64,000 bases of DNA from Candidatus Hadarchaeum sp. (GTDB taxonomy: Archaea; Hadarchaeota; Hadarchaeia; Hadarchaeales; Hadarchaeaceae): assembly GCA_020725895.1 (NCBI GenBank), contig DYTO01000002.1:3966-67965 (forward strand), written 5' to 3'. A program made the translations under genes and the position numbers. The notes under the pieces are model-generated. The model did not search any database. It saw nothing but the letters and a program-made list of their open reading frames with translations, and was not told the origin of the DNA. This document shows, piece by piece, positions 1 to 12,711 of the stretch. The stretch's first letter is position 1; each line of letters begins with the position of its first letter.

Positions 1-210
1 CACTGCATTTTCAAGAACAAAGTCCTTTCTTACATCACGAGGACGCCCATTCACGCTGAGCGAGGGGAGCAGGAGTTGCCCGACCTGATCCAGGTGGCGG
101 TCGACAACGGCCACAAGATAAAGATCTTTCCCGTTTGCAAGAAGTACACGAACATAAACACGGAAGAGGACCTCAGGGAAGCTGAAATGCTGATGAGGAA
201 ATTGGGATAA
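1..210 (+). CDS. 3'-terminal fragment of a sugar-phosphate nucleotidyltransferase (start lies outside the window)
   Basis: The open frame runs from base 1 to the TAA at 208-210. The tail HCIFKNKVL...GHKIKIFPV resembles NTP-transferase C-termini. It sits beside a glycosylation cluster. Confidence 0.4.
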   Translation, partial: HCIFKNKVLSYITRTPIHAERGEQELPDLIQVAVDNGHKIKIFPVCKKYTNINTEEDLREAEMLMRKLG

Positions 211-223
211 ATCGTTCGTTTAA

Positions 224-517
224 TTGCGCTGTTTCCTGGTTTATAAGCAACATCCGCGCAAATTCCTGGCGGGGGAAATGAGAAAAAATAGAGCGGCGAA
301 CGTTCGCCACTACGTGATATATGATTTCAATGGCAGGGCTCCTCGGGGCCTATACCGCCTGCGGAAAAAATTGGAATCGAAAGGATTGCTTGAGGTGATC
401 CAGTACAGTGTCGTTGCTTCCGAGAGACTTGACGTTGCCTTGGATGTGGCGCATTTCTGCCGAAAGAGAGGAGGAAAAGTAAACTTGATTAGGGGCATCT
501 TGTGTGATGTTTGCTGA
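224..517 (+). CDS. small Cas2-fold-like protein (orphan, no other cas genes or array)
   Basis: A 97-aa ORF in a 560-bp gap between convergent genes. The pattern VIYDF..GRAPRGLYRLRKKLESKGL..IQYSVV...KVNLIRG matches the Cas2/VapD beta-alpha-beta layout. The true start may be the internal Met at 278. The ORF is flanked by identical 16-nt palindromes. Confidence 0.3.
   Translation: MRCFLVYKQHPRKFLAGEMRKNRAANVRHYVIYDFNGRAPRGLYRLRKKLESKGLLEVIQYSVVASERLDVALDVAHFCRKRGGKVNLIRGILCDVC
295..310. repeat. 16-nt palindromic motif GGCGAACGTTCGCCAC (copy 1)
   Basis: Exact copy also at 519-534. The 12-nt core GCGAACGTTCGC occurs a third time at 58698-58713. Confidence 0.6.
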
Positions 518-518
518 T

Positions 519-534
519 GGCGAACGTTCGCCAC
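519..534. repeat. 16-nt palindromic motif GGCGAACGTTCGCCAC (copy 2)
   Basis: Identical to 295-310. It lies immediately after the stop of the Cas2-like ORF. Confidence 0.6.
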
Positions 535-620
535 CGCACATGGAAATCGGTCTTTTGAAGTTTTCGGATTGCGAATACTCGTAAATGCTCTTATTAGCCG
601 AAAAAAACAAAAATAGCACT

Positions 621-758
621 ATGGCCGACGCAAAAGAAGGATACGGCAAATCGTACAAGAAAAATTTGAAGAAATATCTGCTATTGTACATCGTGATTGG
701 TGCGATAGCTTACTTCCTGATCTGGTACCTGTTTCTGCGGGGCGCCTACGCGGGATGA
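621..758 (+). CDS. small hydrophobic protein (45 aa, single TM helix)
   Basis: An ATG-to-TGA ORF reading MADAKEGYGKSYKKNLKKYLLLYIVIGAIAYFLIWYLFLRGAYAG. It has a charged N-terminus followed by one TM segment. It lies in an otherwise unexplained intergenic gap. Confidence 0.25.
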   Translation: MADAKEGYGKSYKKNLKKYLLLYIVIGAIAYFLIWYLFLRGAYAG

Positions 759-770
759 TCTCCACATTAG

Positions 771-1784
771 TCAAGTGCCAGTTCTTGTGGCACGATACCA
801 GGCGATGGATCTCGCGACGAGGCTTTCCAGATCGCCCTTGGGGCGGTAACCGAACCTCTCCCTCGCCTTGCCTATGTCGTACGCCAGGCTCACATGCTCA
901 GCGATGTTATTTCGCGACAGCTCGAGCGGGTTGCTCCCAAGAGTTGTTTCAAGCAAATCGCCCGAATATGCCAGGAGCTTGAACAAAATTTTAGGAATGT
1001 ATATCTCCAAAGGCTCCCCGCCGAGAACTCGCGATATCGTGTCCAGCACCTCCTTGTCGGTGTATGGGCGCCCATCGTCAACGTGGAATATCTCACCCTT
1101 TTCCTTCACTCCCATCGCCAGGACCAATGCATCGACCAGGTTGTCTATGTAGCAAAACGTTACGAGCGTGTCGCCCCGCCCGATGTGAATAATCGGTGCA
1201 CGACCTTTCATTTTCCCTTCAACAAATTTCACCATCTCAAGGAGCCCATCTTGGCCCCCGGGCCCGTAAACTGTCGGCGGCCGTAATATTGTAACAGGAA
1301 ATCCTGATTTTCTGTGGTAGTCGAGCAAAAGCTGTTCGGCCTCGAATTTCGACCGCCCATAAGGCGTGACGGGGTTGCATTCAACGCTTTCGTCAACGAT
1401 ACCGCTATTTGTCTTCGGCCGCCCTATCGCGGCAATGCTGCTAGTGAAGACGAAATTTTTGACGTTTTGTTTGAGATAGAGCTCGGCCAGATTTCTAGTC
1501 GCGACAACGTTCGCCTCGTGGAAGACGCGGTAGTCTGTGATAGAGTGGTCGAGGACCGCAGCCAGATGAAATATGAAATCAAAATCCTTCGGCAGGCCCG
1601 CCAAGGTCTCCGGCTTCAGCAAGTCCACGCGGTGGATCTTCACCCCGCACTTTTCCAGCTCCGCGATTCTTTCCTTCGATGAAGTTTCCCTGGCGAGCCC
1701 GACGACCTCGTTCCCTGCCCCAGCAAGCCTGCAGGCTAGCCTTGAGCCTATGAAACCCGTCGCGCCAGTAACCAGTATTCTCAT
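771..1784 (-). CDS. NAD-dependent epimerase/dehydratase (UDP-sugar 4-epimerase family)
   Basis: It carries the MRILVTGATGFIGSRL Rossmann motif and YxxxK-type SDR features. The ORF track starts at 1829, but the conserved N-terminus begins at the Met at 1784. Confidence 0.85.
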   Translation of the reverse strand: MRILVTGATGFIGSRLACRLAGAGNEVVGLARETSSKERIAELEKCGVKIHRVDLLKPETLAGLPKDFDFIFHLAAVLDHSITDYRVFHEANVVATRNLAELYLKQNVKNFVFTSSIAAIGRPKTNSGIVDESVECNPVTPYGRSKFEAEQLLLDYHRKSGFPVTILRPPTVYGPGGQDGLLEMVKFVEGKMKGRAPIIHIGRGDTLVTFCYIDNLVDALVLAMGVKEKGEIFHVDDGRPYTDKEVLDTISRVLGGEPLEIYIPKILFKLLAYSGDLLETTLGSNPLELSRNNIAEHVSLAYDIGKARERFGYRPKGDLESLVARSIAWYRATRTGT

Positions 1785-1846
1785 CCTACCATTCAAGAAA
1801 AAGCTCGAAACGATATAAGACGGTAGCAATAGTGGTTGTGGAGAGC

Positions 1847-2944
1847 ATGAGGGTCGCAGTTTGCCACGATAGGCTGATGGAGAAAAGCGGCGGCGAGCGC
1901 GTCGCCCTGGTCCTTGCGAAGACTTTCAACGCGGACCTCTACGTCGCCAATTACGACCCCGAGCACACTTTCGAGTTCGCCAAGGGGATAAACGTCATAA
2001 AGACATCCCCCTCGGCGGAGCCGCCACTCCCGCAACTCTACACGCTCGTCTGGATGAAGGACGCTATCAGGTTCTCGAAGCTCAAAGAGTTAAAGGATTA
2101 CGACCTGGTCGTGACTTCGGGGCAGCTCGCTCATTTCGCCTCCATCCAGAACCCGAGGAACATCTGGTACTGCCACACTCCTAACAGGGCGCTATACGAC
2201 CTCAGGGACGAGGTCAGGGCGCGTCTAGGTTTCCTATGGCAGCCATTCTTCGACATATGGGCCGATCTATGGAAACCCTTCGACAGGAATTCCGTCAAGC
2301 ACATCAACAAGATAGTCGTGAACTCCAAGAACGTGAAGAGGCGCGTGAAGGACTTTTACGGCCGCGATTCCGAGGTCGTTTACCCGCCCGTCGACCTGAA
2401 GAAGTTCAAGTTCAAGAAGTCGGGCGGCTACTGGCTCTCCGTGCAGAGGGTCGAGCCCGAGAAGAGGATTGAGATGCAATTGAAAGTCTTCGAGAAATTC
2501 CCGAATGAAAAGCTAGTTCTCGTCGGGCCAGGGAAGTACGGTAAGGAATACATGGAGAGGATCACGAGGATGGTCGAGAAAATGCCGAACGTCGAGTGGA
2601 AGAAGGACGTCAGCGAGAAGGAGCTCGTTGAACTATATTCCAACTGCAAGGCGCTGATTCAGACGCCGATAGACGAGGATTTCGGGCTGATAGCGATAGA
2701 GGCGATGGCCAGCGGAAAACCCTGCATAGCGGTCGACGAGGGAGGCTTCCGCGAGACGATAATCCACGGGAAGACCGGGCTGCTCCTGAAGGAGCCTTAC
2801 GAGGAGAATCTCGCGAATGTCGTCGAGAACTTCGGGAAGTACAGGTTCGACCCCAAGGCCTGCCAGGCGCGCGCGAAGGTCTTCTCGGAGGAGGAGTTCA
2901 TGAGGAAAATGAAGAAAGTCGCGAAAGAGGTCGCGGGCGGCTAA
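1847..2944 (+). CDS. glycosyltransferase, GT4 (group 1) family
   Basis: The C-terminal domain shows the EDFGLIAIEAMASGKPCIAVDEGGFRETI motif typical of GT4 retaining transferases. The likely start is the second Met, MRVAVCHD. Confidence 0.85.
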   Translation: MRVAVCHDRLMEKSGGERVALVLAKTFNADLYVANYDPEHTFEFAKGINVIKTSPSAEPPLPQLYTLVWMKDAIRFSKLKELKDYDLVVTSGQLAHFASIQNPRNIWYCHTPNRALYDLRDEVRARLGFLWQPFFDIWADLWKPFDRNSVKHINKIVVNSKNVKRRVKDFYGRDSEVVYPPVDLKKFKFKKSGGYWLSVQRVEPEKRIEMQLKVFEKFPNEKLVLVGPGKYGKEYMERITRMVEKMPNVEWKKDVSEKELVELYSNCKALIQTPIDEDFGLIAIEAMASGKPCIAVDEGGFRETIIHGKTGLLLKEPYEENLANVVENFGKYRFDPKACQARAKVFSEEEFMRKMKKVAKEVAGG

Positions 2945-2991
2945 GATAATGCTAAAAACATTTGGAGAGAGATAGCGGTTAAGGTGAAAAA

Positions 2992-3987
2992 ATGAGATAC
3001 TACTCGATTCACGGGCTTTTCACGATCGAGACGAACACGGACATCCCCGTCCCCGACTACCTCGAGGTCAAAAAGCCAATCGCGAAGCCCGACATGAATA
3101 TCATCTGCGGGCCTCTCGAGCTCAAGAGGCCGAAGGACAGCATGATGAGGACAGGCTACTACTTCTGGAGGGACGAAAAGTCGCTCTACATAGACTACGG
3201 GGTGCGAGACGTGAAGCTAGTGATGCGCGACCTCCTGGGCAAGCCCGAGATCCTATGCTCGAAGAACTTCCGGAAGTACTCCTCCCAGGACAGCTGGAAC
3301 GACCTGATCAACGCCGTGATTCTCCTGAACCTGATAAAGCGCGGCTACACCCTCGCCCACGCCGGGAGCCTCAGCTATCGCGCCAAGGACGGCGTCATCA
3401 TCAGCGCCCCGGCCGACACTGGGAAGACGTCCACCATTCTCTCGCTCGTCGCGATGAAAGACTTCGGATTCATGTCCGACGACGCCGCGCTAGTCGGCAA
3501 GGGCTTCGTCTACGCCTACCCGGAGAAGGTCAAGGTCTCGCCCTACACCCTGACAGGCGACCTGCGCGTCAAGAAGCTGAAGAGGAAGATATTCAAGTCG
3601 AGGATGCTCGGCCTTGCCTCCGAGAGGATCTTGAAGATGAACCTCACGGACTTCTACGAGGTCCCGAAAGACCTGGTCGTGGAAAAGTCCCCGATAAAAA
3701 AGGTGTTTGTTTTCGGCGGCCACAGCGCCGAGAGGACCGTGAAGAAGATAGACAGCAAGCTCGCGGCGAGGATGATATTCATCTCGTCAGTGGACCTCGC
3801 GAGGCTTATGCACAGGTACCTGGAGCTCTACTACTACGTCTTCGCCGTCGACACGTACAAGTTCACAGAGGAGATGAACAGGATAGTCGAGGACTCATTC
3901 AAGAAGGCGCAGTGCTTCATGGTCTCTGCTCCGAGGATCAAGGACTACGCTCATGTCGTCGCCGAAACGCTAGGGAAGTCCTCATGA
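2992..3987 (+). CDS. HPr-kinase C-domain-like P-loop protein (HprK-related kinase family), function unknown
   Basis: The segment AHAGSLSYRAKDGVIISAPADTGKTSTILSLV...SDDAALV parallels the HprK core hHG..v...GvLI.G.SGsGKSe.al.Lv..G..LvaDD. Confidence 0.55.
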   Translation: MRYYSIHGLFTIETNTDIPVPDYLEVKKPIAKPDMNIICGPLELKRPKDSMMRTGYYFWRDEKSLYIDYGVRDVKLVMRDLLGKPEILCSKNFRKYSSQDSWNDLINAVILLNLIKRGYTLAHAGSLSYRAKDGVIISAPADTGKTSTILSLVAMKDFGFMSDDAALVGKGFVYAYPEKVKVSPYTLTGDLRVKKLKRKIFKSRMLGLASERILKMNLTDFYEVPKDLVVEKSPIKKVFVFGGHSAERTVKKIDSKLAARMIFISSVDLARLMHRYLELYYYVFAVDTYKFTEEMNRIVEDSFKKAQCFMVSAPRIKDYAHVVAETLGKSS

Positions 3988-3997
3988 GGGCAGGAGA

Positions 3998-4819
3998 ATG
4001 GAAGAGTACAACTTCAAGAGATGGTACCCGACATTCTCTCTAGTGAACAAAATTTTCCGAGAGAACGACATCGACCACGTCTTCATCAAGATGCTGCTAG
4101 ACCCCTTCCACATGAGGGACGTCGACGTCATCATCCCGAAGCTCGATGACGAGAAGCGTGCGATAGATCTTCTGAGGAAGGCTGGTTTCCGACCCTACAG
4201 GGCGGGCAAACTCCTCAACCCGTGGAAGATAATCTGCGAGGGGATAGACATCGGGCATCTGGCGGTCGACCTGCACCCGACGGCCGAGTGGAACAGGACG
4301 ATGGTCGCGGACGGGAGGGAGATCAACTCGCACAGGATCGAGGTCAAGATAGGCGACACTAAGGCCTTCCTGCCAATCCCTGAATATTCGCTATACCTGG
4401 TTGCCACGCATTCCTTCTACCAGCACATGACTATTTTGCGCCCCGAGGTGCAGAACGGCATACACTTTATCTCCCAGCCGAAATTCTCGTGGAAGCGACT
4501 CCAGGCGATCGCGAGAGTCTACGGGACTGTCGAGTCGATTTACGCTTTCCTTCTCGCGATAAACGTTGAAAAGCCGAAGACAATCGATGAGATGACGTTG
4601 GGTCTCTTCTCAGGCGGAACGCCGAGTGCGTTGGTACAGAGGTGGTTCGATGAAACTGAAAAGAAGTTCCCGCTTATTATCCCACGCTGGCTCGGCTGCA
4701 TCTTTCCATCATACTACCACACGAAATCCCTGATTGGGAAGGTCAGGCCGACAGAAGTCGCGTTCGATTTTATCTCGCACTACATGAGGCTGTCCAGCGG
4801 AAGGGGTGCTTTCGTTTGA
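3998..4819 (+). CDS. uncharacterised nucleotidyltransferase-like protein (PF14907-like)
   Basis: The N-terminus VFIKMLLDPFHMRDVDVIIPKLDDEKRAIDLLRKAGF fits the KG..L...YP..R...DIDLLV..D...A...L...G(F/Y) signature. Its stop overlaps the next start in an ATGA arrangement. Confidence 0.4.
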   Translation: MEEYNFKRWYPTFSLVNKIFRENDIDHVFIKMLLDPFHMRDVDVIIPKLDDEKRAIDLLRKAGFRPYRAGKLLNPWKIICEGIDIGHLAVDLHPTAEWNRTMVADGREINSHRIEVKIGDTKAFLPIPEYSLYLVATHSFYQHMTILRPEVQNGIHFISQPKFSWKRLQAIARVYGTVESIYAFLLAINVEKPKTIDEMTLGLFSGGTPSALVQRWFDETEKKFPLIIPRWLGCIFPSYYHTKSLIGKVRPTEVAFDFISHYMRLSSGRGAFV

Positions 4820-5745
4820 AGGCGACATTTCTCTATCCCGCGAGCGGCATCAGCCCCCACTACGCGCACCTCACCTGGGCGAAAACTGTGTGCAAGAAAG
4901 TCGTCGAGACGCCGATGGGGTTCGGGCGCTTCGACTATAGCCAGCTCGAAGGTTCGGACATCCTCCTTCTGGAATCCCTATACTGCGTGCCTTTCGCGCG
5001 CAAGTTCAAGAAAAATAACCCTGACTGCAAGATTGTGACGATAATCGCGGACACGAGTTTCTGGAACGAGCGGCTGGGAGTCCTCAGGAAAGTTTTCTAT
5101 TGGAGATATCTCGGGATGGTCGACGGTTTCGTCTCGGTTTCCGAAAGGATAAAGCGCGACATTCAGGGTTACGTTGACAGGCCCGTCGAGGTCGTGAGGC
5201 CTTTCCTCGTGAACAAGTACGACTTCAATCGGCGCGGTTTCAACAAGAACGTTCTTTTTGTGGGAAACGACGCGGTCGAGAAGGGCTTCGGCAAGCTCGT
5301 GAAGGCCATGGAGCACCTGCCGGACTTCGACCTTTACCTAGTCGGGGACTGTTACAAGAAGATCAAGACGAATAAACCGAACGTCCACGTCGAGAAGAGG
5401 GTGCCCAGCCTCAAGCCATACTTCGGGAAGTGCTCGATATACGCGCACCCGGCGGATTTCGACCCTTGCCCGTCGGCGATTTGGGAGGCGATGTACGCCG
5501 GGCTTCTTCCCGTGATTTCAACTGGCGTCGGGCAGAGCGAGCTTTTCAAGGGGGACCTTGGGAGGCTCGTGCTGAAGAACAATGAACCGAAGAGCATTGC
5601 AGATAAAATTTCAGAAGTCTATTCAATCGGCGACAAGCGGAAGATTCTTGAAAGTTGCAGGAAGCTGGCGAACGATCACACGAAGGAGAAAATCGTCTCG
5701 AGGTTCAAAGTCGCGTTTTCAAAAATCTTGAAAGAAATTTCTTAA
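4816..5745 (+). CDS. glycosyltransferase (GT4-like C-terminal domain)
   Basis: It carries HPADFDPCPSAIWEAMYAGLLPVISTGVGQSELF, an EX7E-like GT4 motif. The gene is translationally coupled to the upstream gene. Confidence 0.65.
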   Translation: MKATFLYPASGISPHYAHLTWAKTVCKKVVETPMGFGRFDYSQLEGSDILLLESLYCVPFARKFKKNNPDCKIVTIIADTSFWNERLGVLRKVFYWRYLGMVDGFVSVSERIKRDIQGYVDRPVEVVRPFLVNKYDFNRRGFNKNVLFVGNDAVEKGFGKLVKAMEHLPDFDLYLVGDCYKKIKTNKPNVHVEKRVPSLKPYFGKCSIYAHPADFDPCPSAIWEAMYAGLLPVISTGVGQSELFKGDLGRLVLKNNEPKSIADKISEVYSIGDKRKILESCRKLANDHTKEKIVSRFKVAFSKILKEIS

Positions 5746-6404
5746 AGCCTGTTTAACCTCAGCTTAATGAGGCCGATGAAAATCCTGATCCCGCTCGCGA
5801 TAGTGGTCCCGCGCGCCTTTGAATACTGGGTGAACAGGCATGGGACGAGGATTTCCTTCAGCTTCAGCTTTTCCTGTTTCGCGATGATGACGATCTCGGA
5901 CGAGACCTCGTACCTGTTGCTCTTTATCTGGACGGCCCCGAGCGCGTGCCTGTTGAGCGCCCGCATCCCGGACTGAGAGTCCGTGAAGTAGCCGCCCATC
6001 GCCCGGGTCACAAGGTTGAACCAGAAATTCCCTATCTTCTTGTGGAAAGGCGCGTCCACGAAGTACCTCACGCCGATGACCAAGTCGTAGCCTTCCAGCA
6101 CATCGATAACCTTTTTCACGTGTTTCGGGTCGTGCTGGCCGTCCGAGTCGAATGTCACCGCGACGTCCGCATCCAGCTCCCTCGCCTTGGCCAGCCCAGT
6201 CCTCAGGGCCGCGCCCAGCCCGGAGTTCTTCTGGTGCTTCACGACTGTCGCTCCCTTCGATTTCGCGACCTCGGCGGTGTTGTCCTTCGAGCCGTCGTCA
6301 ATGACGATAATGTCCTTCCAGCCCTCCGCGTGGAGTCCGTCGATGACTTCGCCTATCGACTTGCCCTCGTTGTACGCCGGCATAACTATCCAGACTTTCA
6401 TCAT
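5742..6404 (-). CDS. GT2 glycosyltransferase, dolichyl-phosphate mannose/glucose synthase-like
   Basis: MMKVWIVMPAYNEG...IIVIDDGSKDNT...TFDSDGQHDP are classic GT2 DxD and DPM1-like motifs. Confidence 0.85.
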   Translation of the reverse strand: MMKVWIVMPAYNEGKSIGEVIDGLHAEGWKDIIVIDDGSKDNTAEVAKSKGATVVKHQKNSGLGAALRTGLAKARELDADVAVTFDSDGQHDPKHVKKVIDVLEGYDLVIGVRYFVDAPFHKKIGNFWFNLVTRAMGGYFTDSQSGMRALNRHALGAVQIKSNRYEVSSEIVIIAKQEKLKLKEILVPCLFTQYSKARGTTIASGIRIFIGLIKLRLNRL

Positions 6405-6479
6405 CTCACTTCTCAGGTAATTTTTTTGAGTTAATCTAACTTGCGTTTAACGTTAAAAAGGTCGAGGTAGATTCCAGAT

Positions 6480-6899
6480 TTGGTTGGCATGAGGACCTGG
6501 TACAAGGAGTTCAGTTTTTCGACGAGGAAGCAGAAGGAGGTCGTCGATGTCACGTCCACGATCGAAAGGGCGGTCGACGAGTCCGGGATAAAGAACGGGC
6601 TTCTTCTCGTGCAGATCCCGCACGCCACGGCCTCGCTAGTCCTCAACGAGGGCGAGAGCGGCCTGAAGCAAGACCTTTTGAACAAGCTCGAAGAGTTGTT
6701 CCCAGCGGGAGGCGGATACATGCACGACAGGATTGACGACAACGCTCATTCGCATCTGAAATCGGCGGTCATTGGCTCATCGCGGGTTTTGCCCGTGATT
6801 GACGGCGGCATCGTTCGGGGGACTTGGCAGAATTTCCTGATAATAGAGGAGGACGGGCCGCGCACGAGGAGGCTCGCGGTATTCATGATGGGTGAGTAA
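6480..6899 (+). CDS. YjbQ/UPF0047 family protein (secondary thiamine-phosphate synthase-like)
   Basis: 139 aa with the conserved YjbQ blocks LLLVQIPHATASLVLNE and YMHDRIDDNAHSHLKSAVIG. Confidence 0.8.
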   Translation: MVGMRTWYKEFSFSTRKQKEVVDVTSTIERAVDESGIKNGLLLVQIPHATASLVLNEGESGLKQDLLNKLEELFPAGGGYMHDRIDDNAHSHLKSAVIGSSRVLPVIDGGIVRGTWQNFLIIEEDGPRTRRLAVFMMGE

Positions 6900-6959
6900 T
6901 TTTTAAATTTCAATTAATTGTGGGCAATGGCAATAATGATCCGAATACTTTCGGTGACC

Positions 6960-7003
6960 CCCCCAAAATGACTTGATTAACTCCGATGTTTTGATTTTGG
7001 GGG
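6960..7003. promoter_or_regulatory. perfect 10-bp inverted repeat CCCCCAAAAT/ATTTTGGGGG with 24-nt spacer immediately upstream of the LAGLIDADG gene start
   Basis: The repeat is seen directly in the sequence. It lies between the yjbQ stop at 6899 and the ATG at 7008. Confidence 0.4.
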
Positions 7004-7007
7004 TTTA

Positions 7008-8015
7008 ATGCGAAAACAAGTCAACAAGGAAATTTTTGGAGAAATACTTCGGAGATATTTCGAAAATCACGAAGGTTCTACAACATTGGCAAAAATGTAT
7101 GGTATCAATAAATCGACCATTCAGAAATGGTTGAGTTTGAAACTACGCAAAGGTGAAGTTCAATTTGTAATGACTCTTAACAATTGGAATCTCGCCAAAT
7201 CGCGCAGACTGGTGTTTAAAAGAGCAGCGGCAGCAAGAGGCGCTAAATCGAGGAAAAAAGTGATGTTGCGATTCGGCAAAAGTTTTGCATATGCGTTGGG
7301 CGTTCTGTGCGGAGATGGGCATGTCGCAGAGGGTTATGCATATCTACCCTGTCATGACATAAAATTTGCTGAATCGTTTTTGGAAAATGGAGAAAAAGCA
7401 TTTGGTATAAAGGCATCTTTTAATCCAGAAAAGAAAATTAGAGGATTGTACCGCGTAACGTTTCATTCAAGGGAATTAGCGGATAGGTTAAACGACTTGT
7501 ATAAGACTAGGACAAGAGAATGGAAAATTCCTCCGGAGATTGTTAATGGCAATAATTTACTGAAAGCGAATTTTCTAAAGGGGTTTGTTGATTCAGAGGG
7601 ACGTGTCGGTCTTTCGGTTTACAAGTGTTATTATACTGTTAAGAGTGGAGAAAAACGCAGCTGTTGGATTTTGCATGGCTACGTTAATTTAAGTTCTGTA
7701 AATGAAAGAGGCATCAAACAAGTACATAAACTTCTAAAAGATTTGGGCATACGCACCAACTTGTATTTTATCGGAAGAAACGACGAGTGGCGCATTTCAA
7801 CAGTAAAAAACAAGTCAAACTTGCTCCTGTTTCAAAAACTCGTTGATTTCAGAACTGCTAGTGATCACGAGAGGCTGAGGTTTTTAAACCAAAACATCAA
7901 TCATTCACCGAATACATGGAGGTGGATAGGCAGTTCGAAGTACTTGCCAAAAAGGTGTAAGGATATGATGCAGCAACAGAGGCCTAGAGGGGTCGTCTAC
8001 TTGGATAGGCAATAA
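7008..8015 (+). CDS. free-standing LAGLIDADG homing-endonuclease-like protein with N-terminal HTH
   Basis: It has two LAGLIDADG motifs, FAYALGVLCGDGHV and LKGFVDSEGRV. The N-terminus TTLAKMYGINKSTIQKWL is HTH-like. The gene is AT-rich relative to its surroundings. Confidence 0.75.
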   Translation: MRKQVNKEIFGEILRRYFENHEGSTTLAKMYGINKSTIQKWLSLKLRKGEVQFVMTLNNWNLAKSRRLVFKRAAAARGAKSRKKVMLRFGKSFAYALGVLCGDGHVAEGYAYLPCHDIKFAESFLENGEKAFGIKASFNPEKKIRGLYRVTFHSRELADRLNDLYKTRTREWKIPPEIVNGNNLLKANFLKGFVDSEGRVGLSVYKCYYTVKSGEKRSCWILHGYVNLSSVNERGIKQVHKLLKDLGIRTNLYFIGRNDEWRISTVKNKSNLLLFQKLVDFRTASDHERLRFLNQNINHSPNTWRWIGSSKYLPKRCKDMMQQQRPRGVVYLDRQ

Positions 8016-8061
8016 AGTTGCCCCAAAAATAGAGACGACTTCAGTAAAGGCCGATACAGGC

Positions 8062-8565
8062 ATGGTAGTCGTTATAGGCGTGCTTGGCGATGGCGAGGCC
8101 GAGCTAATCTTTTCAGGGAACGAGCGCGACGAGCGCGAGGCGCTGGAATGGCTGAAGGAGAAGCTGGAAAATTGCAACTTGATAATAACATGGTACGGCT
8201 CCGGGTTCGACATACCGTTCCTCCTGACGAGGGCGGTCCTCCACGGGGTGGACCTCTCCAAGCTCGCGGAGATCCCGATGCTGGACCTCTACCAGTGGGC
8301 GAAGGCTAATCTCATTTTGAACAGCTACAAGATGACTTCCGTGGCCCGTTTTCTAGGCATCGACGAGGAGACGGGCGACTTCGCAGGGGCGGACGTCCTC
8401 ACTCTTTTCAAACTCTGGGAAAGGGGAGAGAGCAAGGCGAGCGACATGATTGTCCAGCACTGCAAGGAAGACCTCCATGTTTTGAAGCGGGTGCACGAGA
8501 GGCTGAAGCCGGCAATCGTTCGTTCATCGTCGGCGCCTGGGCTTGGCCCATTGGAAGAAGAGTAG
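8062..8565 (+). CDS. predicted 3'-5' exonuclease, RNase H-like fold related to the PolB exonuclease domain (PF10108-like)
   Basis: Exo I-like LGDGEAE, Exo II-like ITWYGSGFDIPFL and Exo III-like HCKEDLHVL motifs occur in that order. The protein is 167 aa. Confidence 0.55.
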   Translation: MVVVIGVLGDGEAELIFSGNERDEREALEWLKEKLENCNLIITWYGSGFDIPFLLTRAVLHGVDLSKLAEIPMLDLYQWAKANLILNSYKMTSVARFLGIDEETGDFAGADVLTLFKLWERGESKASDMIVQHCKEDLHVLKRVHERLKPAIVRSSSAPGLGPLEEE

Positions 8566-8569
8566 TACC

Positions 8570-9148
8570 ATGCCCGCTAGCAAGGAAGAGAAGTTGCGAT
8601 GGCTTGAGGCCGAGGCGGAGGATTGCAAACTTTGCAGACTTAACGAGGGGAGGGGTAACGTAGTTTTCGGGGTCGGGCCGGCAAATGCAAAAATCATGCT
8701 ACTGGCCGAGGCTCCAGGACGAATGGAAGACAAAACGGGCGTTCCCTTCGCTGGGGCGGCCGGAAAGTTCCTGAACAAGCTTTTGCTAGAGGCCGGGTTG
8801 AAGAGAGAAGAGACATACATAACGAACGTTGTCATGTCGCGCCCGCCCAACAACAGGAAACCTTTGCCCGATGAAATCGGATTTTGCAGGCCTTTTCTAA
8901 AGGGAAAGATTTCGATAATCAAGCCGGAACTGGTTGTTTCTCTTGGCGCTACCGCGTCCGAGGAGCTTTTGGGGAGGCGGGTTGTCCTGGGCTCGGAGCA
9001 CGGCACCCTTCAGGATTGCGAATACGCCGGCGTCAAGTTCAAGCTATTCGTTTCTTACCATCCGGCAGCAGCGCTGTACGGCGGGCAGACTAGGCTGAAA
9101 CTGCAGGAGGACTTCAAGAAGCTCGGGAAACTCGCGGAAAAAATTTAA
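8570..9148 (+). CDS. udg: uracil-DNA glycosylase, family 4 (4Fe-4S type)
   Basis: It carries the CKLCRL...GEGPANAKIMLLAEAPGRMEDKTGVPFAGAAGKFL motif. The ORF track starts at 8543, but the Met at 8570 lies just after the upstream stop. Confidence 0.85.
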   Translation: MPASKEEKLRWLEAEAEDCKLCRLNEGRGNVVFGVGPANAKIMLLAEAPGRMEDKTGVPFAGAAGKFLNKLLLEAGLKREETYITNVVMSRPPNNRKPLPDEIGFCRPFLKGKISIIKPELVVSLGATASEELLGRRVVLGSEHGTLQDCEYAGVKFKLFVSYHPAAALYGGQTRLKLQEDFKKLGKLAEKI

Positions 9149-9810
9149 TCGATATTTTTCAGGTCGATGACCCTTGCTTCCACGGATTTCAAAATTTCCG
9201 CCGGGATATCCCAAACGTTTTTCGCGTGTTCGATAACCGCCCTGTCGCTTGTCGCCACGACCCCGTAACGTCTCAGTTTCATGTCGACCCCGACAACAGC
9301 CTTGGCCGCGCCCCTCACGTCGGCGATTTTCATCACCTTTCTGAATTCGGAGGCAGTATCGCCGCTATGGCCAACCTGTTTGTCGAAGAGGACATCCATA
9401 GATTTCACACCCGAACTTTTGATGATGCTTACGATCAGAGGGATTGCTTTGGAAGTTACGTGAGATTTTCGATATTTCCCGAACACTGCCCTGAGGTCCC
9501 TGACATAACCATCGTCGCAGGCAACGACAACTTTCCCCATCAGAATGCTCTCCATAGTTATAAGCAGGTTATATCCGTCAACGCCCAATCTCTTCCCGCG
9601 CAACCCCGCAACCCCAACGGCCTTTCCAGAGTTCTTATCGATTTCTCTCGTGGAAAAAACGCACCTCGCCAGAAAGTGCCTGACCTCAAGTGGGAAGCGG
9701 TAGTGGTTCGTGACGAAGTTCAGCGCCGTCGTACGCGAATAGCCGCGGTTGAGCAAGAACCTGAGTTCCTGGACGGCACCCACAACTTCAGGCGGTGGCG
9801 TGACAGACAT
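9145..9810 (-). CDS. conserved archaeal hypothetical protein (DUF434-like)
   Basis: A 221-aa ORF with good coding statistics. No catalytic motif was recognised. Confidence 0.45.
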   Translation of the reverse strand: MSVTPPPEVVGAVQELRFLLNRGYSRTTALNFVTNHYRFPLEVRHFLARCVFSTREIDKNSGKAVGVAGLRGKRLGVDGYNLLITMESILMGKVVVACDDGYVRDLRAVFGKYRKSHVTSKAIPLIVSIIKSSGVKSMDVLFDKQVGHSGDTASEFRKVMKIADVRGAAKAVVGVDMKLRRYGVVATSDRAVIEHAKNVWDIPAEILKSVEARVIDLKNID

Positions 9811-9816
9811 CCGCCA

Positions 9817-12711
9817 CTACCCCAGATAAATCGCCGGTCTCAGAGGGATGCTGCCAACTGCCCTATTCTCCGGGTCGAACCTAGCTTGGTCGTCAGATAT
9901 GAAGACCATCACCTGGAGGCCGAGCTGGTCTCTCATAAAGTCAGACGCCTCCTCGAGCACAGAGAACTCATCTATCTTTACGCCCTTTATCAGTTCAATC
10001 TTCTCCTCGGCCGTCTCCCTCAGGCTCGCCACCATCTGCTGCAGGAGCTTTGAGAGGTCGGCCTTGTGCAGCCGCAGCCCCAGCTCGCTCTCGACTCCCT
10101 TCAGAAGCGCGCCGAAGTCGAACTTCCCTCCGCGCACCTTTTCCATGACCTTCAGGTACGCCTTCCATTTCCAATCCTGCGCGACGTAGACGCACACCTT
10201 CGTCGGTTTCGCCTTGATGACCTTCTTTATCTTGGCGATGTCCTCGATCACCCTCGTGACGTAATCCTCCGAGAACTCCACGCCCCTGTCTATCTTTTTC
10301 TCCTCCACGGCGGGCCACTCGGTAGAAGATATGAAGTTGTCATTGCCCAGCCTCTCCCAGAGTTCCTCGCAAGTGTGCGGGGTGAACGGGGCGAGAAGCC
10401 TGAGCCAGACGTCAAGCACATTTTTCAAAGTCTTAGTCCTCGCCTCGGGGGTGCTCGCCCGCTTCATGTATCGCCTCACGTCCTGCATTATCATGAAGAA
10501 CGAGTGCTGCACCGCCCTCCTCGTCTCGAACGCCTCCAGCGCCTCGGTCGCAGCCTTGACGTGGGTCTGGAGCCTGCTCAGCATCCAGCGCTCCGGCTGC
10601 CCCATTGCCGTCGCCCCCTCGCCCGGCATCGCGATTATCTCCTCCGCCAGAGAATAGAACCTATCCAGGCTCCTCTGCATTGCCTCGACCTCGGAGGTCT
10701 TCCAGTCCATGTCCTGCCAGGGCTCCGAGACGGACATCAGGTATATTCTCACGGTGTCCGCGCCGTACTTCTTCACCGCCTCGTTGATCGCGATGATGTT
10801 GCCCTTGGACGATGACATCTTCTGCCCCTCGAGTATCGCGATCCCGAAGCTGACGATGCCGCGCGGGCAGTACTTCGGCAGAAGCTGGGCGTGGTGGAAG
10901 ATGTGGAAAGTCAGGTGGTTCGGGATGAGCTCGTTCGCCGAGACGCGGTAGTCGAGCGGGTACCAGTACTCGAACTCTTTCCTCATCTGCTCGAGCTTGC
11001 CCTTTTCGATGCCGGTGTCCGCGGAAATCTTTCCAGCGTCGCCCTTCGCATCGAACACGTAGTCGAAAACAGCGTCGTTCAGCGACCCGGCCTCCACGGT
11101 TTTCAGGATGTGCGAAATCGTGTAGTATGCCATGTAAATCGTCGAGTCGCTCAGAGATTCTATTATCCAGCCCGGGTCCCAGTGGGCTGGCGTCCCCATT
11201 CCGATCTTCCTCGTGCAGGGCCACTCGTGGAGCCAATCCATCGTGTGCTCGAACTGCGCCCTGCTCTCCGGCGGGATCAGCTTCATGCTGGCAAGGCACT
11301 TCTTCGCCTTGGATTTCCACGTCTCGTCCGCGTAGTTCAGGAACCACTGGTCCTCGACAATCTTGATCACGACGGGCGTCCCGCACCTGCAAGTGACAGG
11401 CCTCGATGCGAACTCGTACATCGTCGCGGCCTCCTTGTCGGCGAGCATCTCCTCCCGAACTGCTGTCTTCGCCTCCGAGACGGGCATGTCCTCGTATCCC
11501 TGGACCCACGAGCGCATCTTCCCCTTCGCGAACTCGTTGCGATAGACCTCGGCAGTCGCCTGCTCGAGCTTGTGGTCCGTCTGCCTCTTGATCCCCATCT
11601 TGTTCACGACGTCGATGGCGGGCGATTCACCGAAGCCCGGGACTTCTATGAGTGATATCGGCTCCAGCTTCATCACTTTCTGCGGGTCGATCCCGCTGTG
11701 GGCGAGCAAATCGACCTGCTGCTGGGCCTCGATCAATGCGATGTAGTCGTAAGGCGCGTGGGCCGGGACCGAGCCGACGACTCCCGTGGCGTTGTTCTCG
11801 TCGACGAAAACCGCCGGAAGGATCGGCACCTTCTTGTGAGTCAGCGGCACCTCGACCTCCTGGCTGAAGTCTATCTTGAAAGGCTTCGCTTCGCCGACAT
11901 TGTATCCCTGCTGCCTGAGCTTTTCAATTGCCGGCTCGCTGACAACCCAGCTCTCGCCGTCCACCTGAACCGCGACGTAGTTCACGTTAGGGTTGAGCCA
12001 CAGGTTCGTCACGCCGAAGACAGTCTCCGGGCGGAGAGTCGCCGCCGGGAGAACGTAGTCGCCAAGGCGGTACTTCAGCAGCGTGAACTCGACAGTTTCC
12101 ACGCCTTCCCCCTCGAGTAGGTCGTGGTCTGTCACGGGGTTCCCGTCCGATGTGCACCACTTGACCGGGTGCTTCCCCTTCACTATCAGCCCCGCGTCCC
12201 ATAGCTTGTGATACTGCCAGGTGATGAACTTGCTGTAGTGTGGGTCGACGGTTGTCAGCTCCCTGCGCCAGTCAATCGAGAATCCCAGCCACTCCATCCC
12301 CTTCCGATAGCTGAGGTCGCTCTCCCTCGCGAAGTAATTGGCGTAGAAGTGTGGGTTCTCAAAGTCCTTCAAAGACTCCTCCGGGATACCGTAGCGCTCG
12401 GTCAGAACATTTATGAATTTCGTGTCTCTCGATGCGACTCTCTTGGCCGCGCCGACTATCGGCGTTCCGGTGAAGTGGTAACCCATCGGGAAAAGGACGT
12501 TGAAGCCCTGCATTCGCTTGAATCTCGCAATGACATCGGGGATTGTGTACGTCCTTCCATGCCCGACATGACAAGGGCCCGAGACGTAAGGAAATGCAGC
12601 CGTGACGTACCACTTGGGCCTTTTATCAGGCTCGACCTCAAAAAGTTGGTCCTCGCGCCAAGCGTCCTGCCATTTCTTGTCGATATCCTGCCAGTTCACC
12701 ATGAAATCCAA
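9817..12711 (-). CDS. leuS: leucyl-tRNA synthetase (archaeal type)
   Basis: 964 aa with a HIGH-region PYVSGPCHVGHGRTY, a KMSKS-like KMSSSKGN and an editing domain. The stop is TAG. Confidence 0.95.
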   Translation of the reverse strand: MDFMVNWQDIDKKWQDAWREDQLFEVEPDKRPKWYVTAAFPYVSGPCHVGHGRTYTIPDVIARFKRMQGFNVLFPMGYHFTGTPIVGAAKRVASRDTKFINVLTERYGIPEESLKDFENPHFYANYFARESDLSYRKGMEWLGFSIDWRRELTTVDPHYSKFITWQYHKLWDAGLIVKGKHPVKWCTSDGNPVTDHDLLEGEGVETVEFTLLKYRLGDYVLPAATLRPETVFGVTNLWLNPNVNYVAVQVDGESWVVSEPAIEKLRQQGYNVGEAKPFKIDFSQEVEVPLTHKKVPILPAVFVDENNATGVVGSVPAHAPYDYIALIEAQQQVDLLAHSGIDPQKVMKLEPISLIEVPGFGESPAIDVVNKMGIKRQTDHKLEQATAEVYRNEFAKGKMRSWVQGYEDMPVSEAKTAVREEMLADKEAATMYEFASRPVTCRCGTPVVIKIVEDQWFLNYADETWKSKAKKCLASMKLIPPESRAQFEHTMDWLHEWPCTRKIGMGTPAHWDPGWIIESLSDSTIYMAYYTISHILKTVEAGSLNDAVFDYVFDAKGDAGKISADTGIEKGKLEQMRKEFEYWYPLDYRVSANELIPNHLTFHIFHHAQLLPKYCPRGIVSFGIAILEGQKMSSSKGNIIAINEAVKKYGADTVRIYLMSVSEPWQDMDWKTSEVEAMQRSLDRFYSLAEEIIAMPGEGATAMGQPERWMLSRLQTHVKAATEALEAFETRRAVQHSFFMIMQDVRRYMKRASTPEARTKTLKNVLDVWLRLLAPFTPHTCEELWERLGNDNFISSTEWPAVEEKKIDRGVEFSEDYVTRVIEDIAKIKKVIKAKPTKVCVYVAQDWKWKAYLKVMEKVRGGKFDFGALLKGVESELGLRLHKADLSKLLQQMVASLRETAEEKIELIKGVKIDEFSVLEEASDFMRDQLGLQVMVFISDDQARFDPENRAVGSIPLRPAIYLG

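Follow-up and report, generated by a model that had tools for sequence, protein, structure and literature searches.

The closest described counterparts of the genes treated here come from lasso-peptide biosynthesis, in which HprK homologs phosphorylate the precursors and a PF14907-type protein, PsmN, then adds a hexose to the phosphate (PMC8498205, PMC6993621). In the case of the PsmK/PsmN pair, the phosphate of pseudomycoidin receives a hexose of 162 Da (PMC6993621). We have analysed a 64-kb stretch of DNA from Candidatus Hadarchaeum sp. (contig DYTO01000002.1; the whole stretch is referred to below as the window), in which two adjacent genes, designated X1 (kinase-like) and X2 (nucleotidyltransferase-like), lie among genes for glycosyltransferases (GTs). 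A first reading made from the sequence alone had likened this pair to a bacterial duo, and PsmK and PsmN do provide the bacterial precedent. We propose that X1 and X2 may act as tailoring enzymes, in a pathway for dolichol-linked surface glycans, that would place a phosphate-based decoration on a lipid-linked glycan, a reading that we hold to be a good possibility but would not yet call probable.

X1 and X2 and their families

The sequence-only reading placed two open reading frames (ORFs) at 2992–3987 and 3998–4819; these coordinates are exact, and judging from their homologs X1 and X2 are real, conserved genes. A collection of 5.8 billion proteins contains 15 full-length homologs of X1 (35–93% identity) and 12 of X2 (51–100%), one of the latter labelled Hadesarchaea, and the X1 and X2 orthologs share contigs with their order kept; in a GTDB scan the closest genome is one of Candidatus Hadarchaeota. 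The order GT4-X1-X2-GT4 of the window operon is retained, the proteins being 60–79% identical and the junctions very short or overlapping, and the genes of the operon are each 69–85% identical to their counterparts in the related locus L001. Shine-Dalgarno-like motifs precede the start codons of both genes (GGTGA upstream of the ATG at 2992, AGGAG upstream of the ATG at 3998). Scanning all ORFs of the window with hidden Markov models (HMMs) gave no second copy of X1 or X2.

X1 has an N-terminal beta domain (approximately residues 1–95) followed by His123, a Walker A motif (A-PADT-GKT, residues 139–146) and the pair Asp163-Asp164, and H123, A139-PADTGKT-146 and D163-D164 are invariant in 16 X1 orthologs. 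The aspartate pair is essential in the lasso kinase PsmK, which is inactivated by D158A/D159A (PMC6993621). Taken alone, X1 matches nothing in Pfam, including PF07475, and it scores 13.9 bits against TIGR04355 and 13.7 bits against TIGR04352 (E about 0.02), where the curated cutoff is 200; X1 therefore lies outside these two HprK-related families, to which it had been provisionally compared. Among the 16 orthologs, HprK_rel_A (TIGR04352) is matched by 13 (best E 7e-5), FomB by 7, and HprK_rel_B and HprK by 4 each.

An alignment of 84 relatives that are 17–40% identical to X1 provides further insight. G144 and K145 are invariant throughout, and conservation reaches 90% or more at Y4, H7, F24, H123, D163 and Y280. 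When the profile of this alignment is compared with the Protein Data Bank (PDB), HprK/P structures rank first (1ko7, E 8.5e-4, then 2qmh, 1jb1, 1knx and 3tqf), with phosphoenolpyruvate carboxykinase (PEPCK) lower, below several AAA-type ATPases, and the profile aligns with 1ko7 column for column through the histidine, G-x-G-K-[ST] and the aspartate pair. Of the 84 relatives, 33 match PF07475 with E values of 0.01 or lower (the best being 4.6e-8); its gathering score is 33.3 bits, of which L011 (19.4) and P0176 (27.5) fall short. Narrower profiles, built from the orthologs of X1 or of X2, reach no solved structure by sequence, and it took the 84-sequence profile to bring out the HprK/P matches.

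The AlphaFold2 model of X1 (pLDDT, the predicted local distance difference test, 87.6; pTM, the predicted template modelling score, 0.83) gives 69 Foldseek matches at E ≤ 1e-3, and the 50 listed consist of PEPCK entries, HprK/P 1ko7 (rank 48) and a single unrelated subunit of a complex (8iuf). The ATP- and GTP-dependent PEPCKs match over most of the length with E down to 2e-6 and template modelling (TM) scores of 0.38–0.46 (0.2–0.46 overall). No membrane segment is predicted in X1. From these profiles and this model, X1, with its two domains and intact catalytic core, belongs to the HprK/PEPCK P-loop kinase superfamily, and it is at this superfamily level that its reported likeness to HPr kinase holds good. 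Within the superfamily it is the representative of a separate, large and unnamed family that reaches no curated model: when 1.84 billion cluster representatives are searched exhaustively by profile, 1813 relatives of X1 appear at E ≤ 1e-3, 435 of them with E ≤ 1e-10; most are of about 330 amino acids (aa), and nearly all have a P-loop resembling DTGKT[ST]. A word-indexed search with the broad X1 profile returned 24 proteins and no domain architectures, and the fusion proteins described below came from the exhaustive search.

X2 of the window has no Pfam match, even at E ≤ 10, and a routine annotation pipeline would assign it to no family, although orthologs 64–78% identical to it do match PF14907. 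Eleven of the 12 orthologs (51–78% identical) match this family, the best with E 2.5e-11, and the X2 family profile aligns with a PF14907 protein that is itself above the gathering score (hhalign probability 95.4%, E 1.8e-8). Among the orthologs, D41-x-D43 and D91 do not vary. The AlphaFold2 model (pLDDT 78.9; the last 38 residues or so, 236–273, are unreliable) matches Pol-beta-fold nucleotidyltransferases, namely MenT1 (8an5, E 5e-4), 5uvd, TM1012 and ANT(2'')-Ia (5cfs). The last of these was the modelling template for PsmN, of which a DxD mutant is inactive (PMC6993621). Orthologs, profile comparison and predicted fold point to a divergent PF14907 (NTP_transf_5) nucleotidyltransferase, so that the earlier description of X2 as PF14907-like stands although the window protein itself does not match the PF14907 model. 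As the matches of the single sequences are remote or absent, the family assignments of both X1 and X2 rest on orthologs, profiles and predicted structures.

Glycan clusters and bacterial fusion proteins

The sequence-only reading described the pair as flanked by two GT4 genes, a GT2 gene and an epimerase gene, and the Pfam and NCBIfam profiles bear this out (Table 1); the pair lies among GT genes, with which it is probably co-transcribed. The GT2 enzyme resembles polyprenyl- or dolichyl-phosphate-sugar synthases, its best NCBIfam matches being PpgS, a polyprenyl-phospho-GalNAc synthase (NF058614, E 2.5e-40), and AglJ (TIGR04182, E 1.7e-30), both below the curated cutoffs, and a GT2 gene is also found beside the pair in L001, L002, L004 and L016. 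The stop codon of X2 overlaps a candidate TTG start at 4816 by 4 nt (GTTTGA). Because of this overlap, translational coupling of X2 to the downstream GT4 gene is plausible, as had been suggested, although the TTG start is only a predicted one.

We examined 13 independent loci with X1-like genes, from Hadarchaeota, Halobacteriales, a Marine Group IV archaeon, Methanosarcinales, a Spirochaetes bacterium and metagenomes (L013 and L014), all of which were HMM-scanned for X1 and X2. All 13 are glycan clusters, with genes for GT4 and GT2 enzymes, sugar-nucleotide enzymes, FkbM or class-I methyltransferases and Wzx-type flippases, the last found in L007 and L010. In every Hadarchaeota locus with a visible upstream flank a GT4 gene lies immediately 5' of the X1-type gene or genes (the flank of L007 is cut off).

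Across these loci the X1-like gene is constant and its partner varies. X2 accompanies X1 in the window and in L001, L006 and L016, and the pairing recurs in the Marine Group IV archaeon (L010), where the X1-like protein is 30% identical to X1 and two PF14907 genes stand with two X1-like genes. In the Hadarchaeota loci L002/L003, L004 and L007 the adjacent slot is filled, without X2, by a paralog of X1 that is 24% identical to it, which we call X1'. The tandem paralogs (L002, 9006–9989; L003, 3683–4666; L004, 8977–9984; L007, 1–1050) are related by hhalign with E 1e-17 to 1e-20. X1' scores better than X1 against HprK_rel_A (E about 1e-7) and weakly matches the Pfam ScmC family, and in these sister Hadarchaeota it seems to substitute for the nucleotidyltransferase. 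The Halobacteriales locus (L009) has a second, partial X1-like ORF, and no partner accompanies the X1-like gene in Methanosarcinales (L011), the Spirochaetes bacterium (L012) or L013 and L014. Judging from this distribution X2 is an optional partner of X1, and the duo of the sequence-only reading is not a fixed one: the pair does recur in a second archaeal group, but many X1 loci lack X2.

Some neighbours of the more distant X1-like genes deserve mention. In L011 a 544-aa protein of the alkaline-phosphatase superfamily (PF01663/sulfatase-like; 1540–3174) overlaps the start of the X1-like gene, and in L012 (3671–6292) the X1-like gene adjoins genes for a CDP-alcohol phosphatidyltransferase, a glycerol-1-phosphate-dehydrogenase-like iron-containing alcohol dehydrogenase and a nucleotidyltransferase; of these neighbours, the alkaline-phosphatase-superfamily protein and the phosphatidyltransferase are a hint of phosphate chemistry. 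Very large ORFs lie beside X1-like genes in the metagenomic glycan clusters (L013, 9079–12522; L014, 5621–7291 and 8537–11563; 556, 1008 and 1147 aa), and the 1147-aa ORF of L013 and the 556-aa ORF of L014 have no Pfam match.

The strongest new evidence, which the sequence-only reading did not foresee, is the fusion of X1-like domains to polyprenyl-phosphate-sugar synthases in bacteria. The fusion proteins (625–838 aa) have a GT2 domain, then a GtrA/DPMS transmembrane domain (PF00535 and PF04138) and then an X1-like domain, the transmembrane domain lying between the other two in all fusions except L018/P0161, and the GT2 and GtrA/DPMS part amounts to a complete synthase of this type. The source label of these proteins is "dolichol-phosphate mannosyltransferase", and one comes from an Anaerolineales bacterium. 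Contigs were examined for three of the fusion proteins; each time the fusion gene comes first in a conserved operon and is followed by genes for a PMT/ArnT-type GT-C enzyme, a PF04185 phosphoesterase, an Ig-like protein and a GH99/GH71-like protein. This operon is seen in L017 (4219–9627), L018 (1624–6424) and two ENA contigs, and two versions of it lie downstream of two-component regulators. Because of the fusion to these synthases, and the operon shared with GT-C and PF04185 genes, the X1 family can be tied to lipid-linked sugars and to phosphate chemistry.

A proposed role in surface-glycan assembly and its alternatives

A glycan-directed phosphate modification had been suggested in the sequence-only reading and is still, we infer, the best reading of the pair. 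In the model that we propose, the neighbouring GT2 (Dol-P-sugar-synthase-like, Dol-P being dolichyl phosphate) and the GT4 enzymes would assemble a lipid-linked substrate at the membrane's cytoplasmic face, and X1 would use ATP to phosphorylate the Dol-P-linked sugar or oligosaccharide, either at a sugar hydroxyl or at a phosphate already there. Where X2 is present it would draw on a nucleotide-activated donor and turn the phosphomonoester into a phosphodiester-linked substituent, either a hexose or a nucleoside monophosphate, and the downstream GT4 may then extend the X2 product; the product of the pathway could be an N-glycan or another cell-surface polysaccharide. This two-step logic is taken from the successive action of PsmK and PsmN on the lasso peptide pseudomycoidin. 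The analysis shows the folds, the intact catalytic motifs, the operon structure, the exclusive glycan-cluster context and the synthase fusion; which substrate is used, which reaction comes first and what is made chemically are what we infer.

Several points weigh against this model. The HprK-type kinases of known substrate act on proteins, peptides or a phosphonate, with none that we know of acting on a glycan. The coupling of X1 and X2 may be loose, because X2 is dispensable in close relatives, and X2 could serve another purpose, because the cluster already has a classical PF00483 sugar-1-phosphate nucleotidyltransferase; X2 of the window is itself below any Pfam threshold. We found no phosphorylated archaeal N-glycan in the literature, and the word "kinase" is absent from a 2024 review of archaeal N-glycosylation (PMC11407970). 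In addition, the reaction of PsmN is biochemically undefined, and its authors allow that it may merely make a substrate for a host glycosyltransferase (PMC6993621).

An alternative explanation that we consider unlikely, but worth weighing, is that the pair activates a donor: X1 would phosphorylate a free small molecule (a sugar at C1, an alcohol or an acid), X2 would convert it with a nucleoside triphosphate to a donor activated as the nucleoside diphosphate, and a flanking GT4 enzyme would transfer it. This would follow the logic of LicA/LicC, AmgK/MurU and Fkp, a kinase together with a nucleotidyltransferase being the well-established, canonical means of activating a substituent, and the pair does lie directly 5' of a GT gene, to which it is possibly translationally coupled. 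The predicted architecture of X1 is nearest to that of PEPCK, a small-molecule enzyme whose two domains enclose the substrate cleft, and FomB, weakly matched by 7 of the 16 X1 orthologs, is a small-molecule kinase. However, the pathway would be incomplete at the many X1 loci without X2, and fusion to a membrane-anchored polyprenyl-phosphate-sugar synthase would be odd for a soluble precursor kinase. Moreover, the known sugar-1-phosphate nucleotidyltransferases are folded differently, and the cluster already contains a gene for one.

In a second alternative X1 would act on the carrier lipid, making Dol-P from dolichol or polyprenol, or dolichyl diphosphate from Dol-P, and so supplying the adjacent GT2 or an initiating GT. 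Joined to a GT2 and GtrA/DPMS transmembrane unit, the substrate of which is polyprenyl phosphate, such a kinase would permit substrate channelling; a Dol-P-sugar-synthase-like GT2 is conserved beside the pair, and HprK-type kinases can turn phosphomonoesters into diphosphates, as the NCBIfam name of FomB indicates and as PsmK does in forming di- and triphosphates (PMC6993621). We nevertheless judge this quite improbable, as the X1 family is patchy, has tandem paralogs and occupies variable, strain-specific glycan islands, unlike a housekeeping enzyme of carrier-lipid metabolism, X1 is without a predicted membrane segment, and X2 would be left without a role.

In a third alternative the target would be a ribosomal peptide or a surface protein, on which X1 would phosphorylate a serine, X2 would add the first hexose to the new phosphate and the GT4 enzymes would extend it. 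PsmK/PsmN, the sole characterised pair of an HprK-like protein and a PF14907 protein, acts in this way (PMC6993621, PMC8498205), and the matches of X1' to HprK_rel_A and, weakly, to ScmC would be in keeping with it, as would radical SAM/SPASM genes (SAM, S-adenosylmethionine) that lie 5–9 kb upstream in L001, L002 and L004, a region that falls outside the window. Nevertheless, neither the window operon nor the 13 related loci contain PqqD or a RiPP recognition element (RRE; RiPP, ribosomally made, post-translationally modified peptide), a lasso cyclase, an ATP-grasp enzyme, a leader protease, an exporter or a precursor peptide, and the window operon has no room for a precursor ORF because its intergenic gaps are too short (2, 47, 10, −4, −4 and 75 nt). 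The radical SAM proteins are generic, W-cofactor-maturase-like or PTO1314-like, far below every curated cutoff, and are not ScmE or ScmF, and X1 itself is remote from the HprK-related models. We regard this alternative as very unlikely, and the link to RiPPs, with its small precursor-peptide ORF, that the sequence-only reading had raised is not borne out, there being nothing RiPP-like in or near the operon.

Genes for radical SAM or radical SAM/SPASM proteins, two or three of them, which may serve in sugar modification or peptide maturation, occur together with a methyltransferase gene in or beside the clusters of several relatives (L001, 13–1125 and 3600–4601; L002, 1–2000 and 2790–3851; L004, 1–1877; L006, 3781–4785 and 11713–12936), and L001 also has a NodU-like carbamoyltransferase gene.

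Finally, that the pair is unrelated to glycans, and is a defence or toxin-antitoxin-like module or a regulatory ATPase lodged in a variable glycan island, is highly improbable: the best solved-structure match of X2 is indeed the nucleotidyltransferase toxin MenT1, and the neighbouring GT4 proteins match PF20706 ("GT4-conflict") below threshold, but no PADLOC model matches any of the proteins, the GT4-X1-X2-GT4 order is conserved with its tight junctions, and the X1-like domain is fused to biosynthetic GT2 enzymes.

If tailoring of a lipid-linked glycan is the function of X1 and X2, the assembly of archaeal surface glycans would gain its first kinase step and its first phosphoglycosyl modification. 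The surface glycans of archaea show great chemical diversity; the phosphate step proposed for the pair is not yet described in archaea, and to our knowledge no kinase has been placed in the assembly of these glycans. We found nothing relevant in the literature on HPr-kinase-like genes in polysaccharide or archaeal glycan clusters, or on the X1 family itself. Phosphorylation of a lipid-linked glycan by X1 would predict phosphate or phosphodiester groups on the surface glycans of Hadarchaeota and would explain the fusion of X1-like domains to polyprenyl-phosphate-sugar synthases. It would also give a function to approximately 1800 unnamed protein clusters across archaea and bacteria, and PF14907 would pass from the single RiPP case of PsmN to a general enzyme that modifies the phosphate, with a role outside RiPPs; X1 and X2 could be useful for glyco-engineering. 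It is possible, although we hold it doubtful, that X1 is the founding archaeal case of an HprK-like family of about 1800 clusters (at 50% identity) that phosphorylates lipid-linked sugars or glycans and that, with a PF14907 enzyme, builds phosphodiester-linked sugar decorations. As far as its sequences indicate, the members of this family are separate proteins in the glycan islands of archaea, and in bacteria they are joined to polyprenyl-phosphate-sugar synthases. Should the pair be merely a route of precursor activation, the finding would be an ordinary one.

The neighbourhood of the pair and known systems

The features of this part of the window are collected in Table 1. The sugar-1-phosphate nucleotidyltransferase gene is truncated by the window edge, and the glycan cluster thus extends beyond it to the left. 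Pfam gives no AglB or flippase within positions 1–10000, where the cluster is truncated at its left edge, and there is no GT-C or GtrA gene in the visible part of the cluster. The true start of the epimerase gene is probably the ATG at about 1784, as the alignment with the L001 ortholog begins at residue 16.

Table 1. Features at the left end of the window (positions in nt)
Feature	Position	Strand	Basis
Sugar-1-phosphate nucleotidyltransferase, last 68 codons	1–204	+	tblastn with the L001 PF00483 protein (90% identity, E 5e-42); synteny
NAD-dependent sugar epimerase/dehydratase (SDR, short-chain dehydrogenase/reductase)	771–1829	-	PF01370, E 1.9e-46; 73% identical to L001 ortholog
GT4 glycosyltransferase, opens the + strand operon	1832–2944	+	PF00534, E 3.4e-29; PF13439, E 2.5e-10
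X1, 331 aa, ATG start, HprK/PEPCK-superfamily P-loop kinase-like protein	2992–3987	+	Profiles, orthologs, predicted structure
X2, 273 aa, ATG start, divergent PF14907-like (NTP_transf_5) Pol-beta-fold nucleotidyltransferase	3998–4819	+	Orthologs, profiles, predicted structure
GT4-type glycosyltransferase (GT1 C-terminal domain), candidate TTG start	4816–5745	+	PF13692, E 5.4e-15; PF00534, E 7.1e-15; 78% identical to L001 ortholog
GT2 polyprenyl/dolichyl-phosphate sugar synthase-like enzyme (PpgS/AglJ-like), convergent to the operon	5742–6404	-	PF00535, E 2.5e-25
335-aa ORF, helix-turn-helix at the N-terminus; LAGLIDADG_3 domain	7008–8015	+	PF14528, E 5.5e-8
ORF	8062–8565		
DUF434 and DUF5616 protein	9145–9810	-	E 4e-19 and 1e-39
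964-aa ORF	9817–12711		Synteny alone with the L001 class-I aminoacyl-tRNA synthetase gene

Beyond the GT2 gene the downstream genes are of a housekeeping kind (YjbQ/UPF0047, DUF434/DUF5616 and the 964-aa ORF). The LAGLIDADG_3 ORF lies in a segment of low GC content (6001–8000, GC 0.466) and separates the YjbQ gene from the ORF at 8062–8565, and from its sequence it looks like a free-standing insertion of the homing-endonuclease type. Genes for YjbQ and an RNase H-like protein are adjacent in L001 and L002 and overlap in L016. The synteny of the DUF434/DUF5616 gene with the large class-I aminoacyl-tRNA synthetase gene is kept in L001.

Of the systems described previously, PsmK/PsmN, together with PadeK, is the nearest to the pair, with the same two superfamilies encoded side by side. 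The aspartate pair of the kinase (D158/D159 in PsmK, D163/D164 in X1) and the DxD motif (D134/D136 in PsmN, D41/D43 in X2) correspond, X2 like PsmN resembles ANT(2'')-Ia (5cfs), and the logic proposed here is likewise that of a phosphate first and a substituent on the phosphate second. However, X1 and X2 are without precursor peptide, RRE, cyclase, protease or exporter and have glycosyltransferases and sugar-nucleotide enzymes as their context, X2 is optional, and X1 is remote from the lasso kinases (E 0.02), with an N-terminal domain of its own in which Y4, H7 and F24 are conserved.

X1 shares with HprK/P (PF07475; 1ko7, 1jb1, 1knx) the P-loop core and the order of histidine, G-x-G-K-[ST] and aspartate pair, although only about 45 residues align by sequence and X1 lacks the MurE/F-like N-terminal domain, a PF07475 match and the context of HPr and the phosphotransferase system. 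The best full-length structural matches are to ATP-dependent PEPCK (1aq2, 2pc9, 1j3b; E 2e-6, 270–410 aligned columns), with which X1 has in common a beta-rich N-terminal domain joined to a P-loop domain, notwithstanding TM scores of only 0.38–0.46, an identity of 10–14% and a length some 200 residues shorter. ScmC of the SynChlorMet cassette (PF27840/TIGR04249) and the phosphonate kinase FomB (NF000361) are weak, sub-threshold matches of X1 paralogs or orthologs and on this ground can be placed in the same superfamily, but the scores are far under the cutoffs and the X1 loci are without ScmE/ScmF-type maturases, PqqD and phosphonate genes. The GtrB/DPMS-type synthases, with their GtrA transmembrane domain and PMT/ArnT-type GT-C partners, are the enzymes to which the bacterial relatives of X1 are fused, whereas in the window X1 is a separate soluble protein with a stand-alone GT2 encoded nearby.

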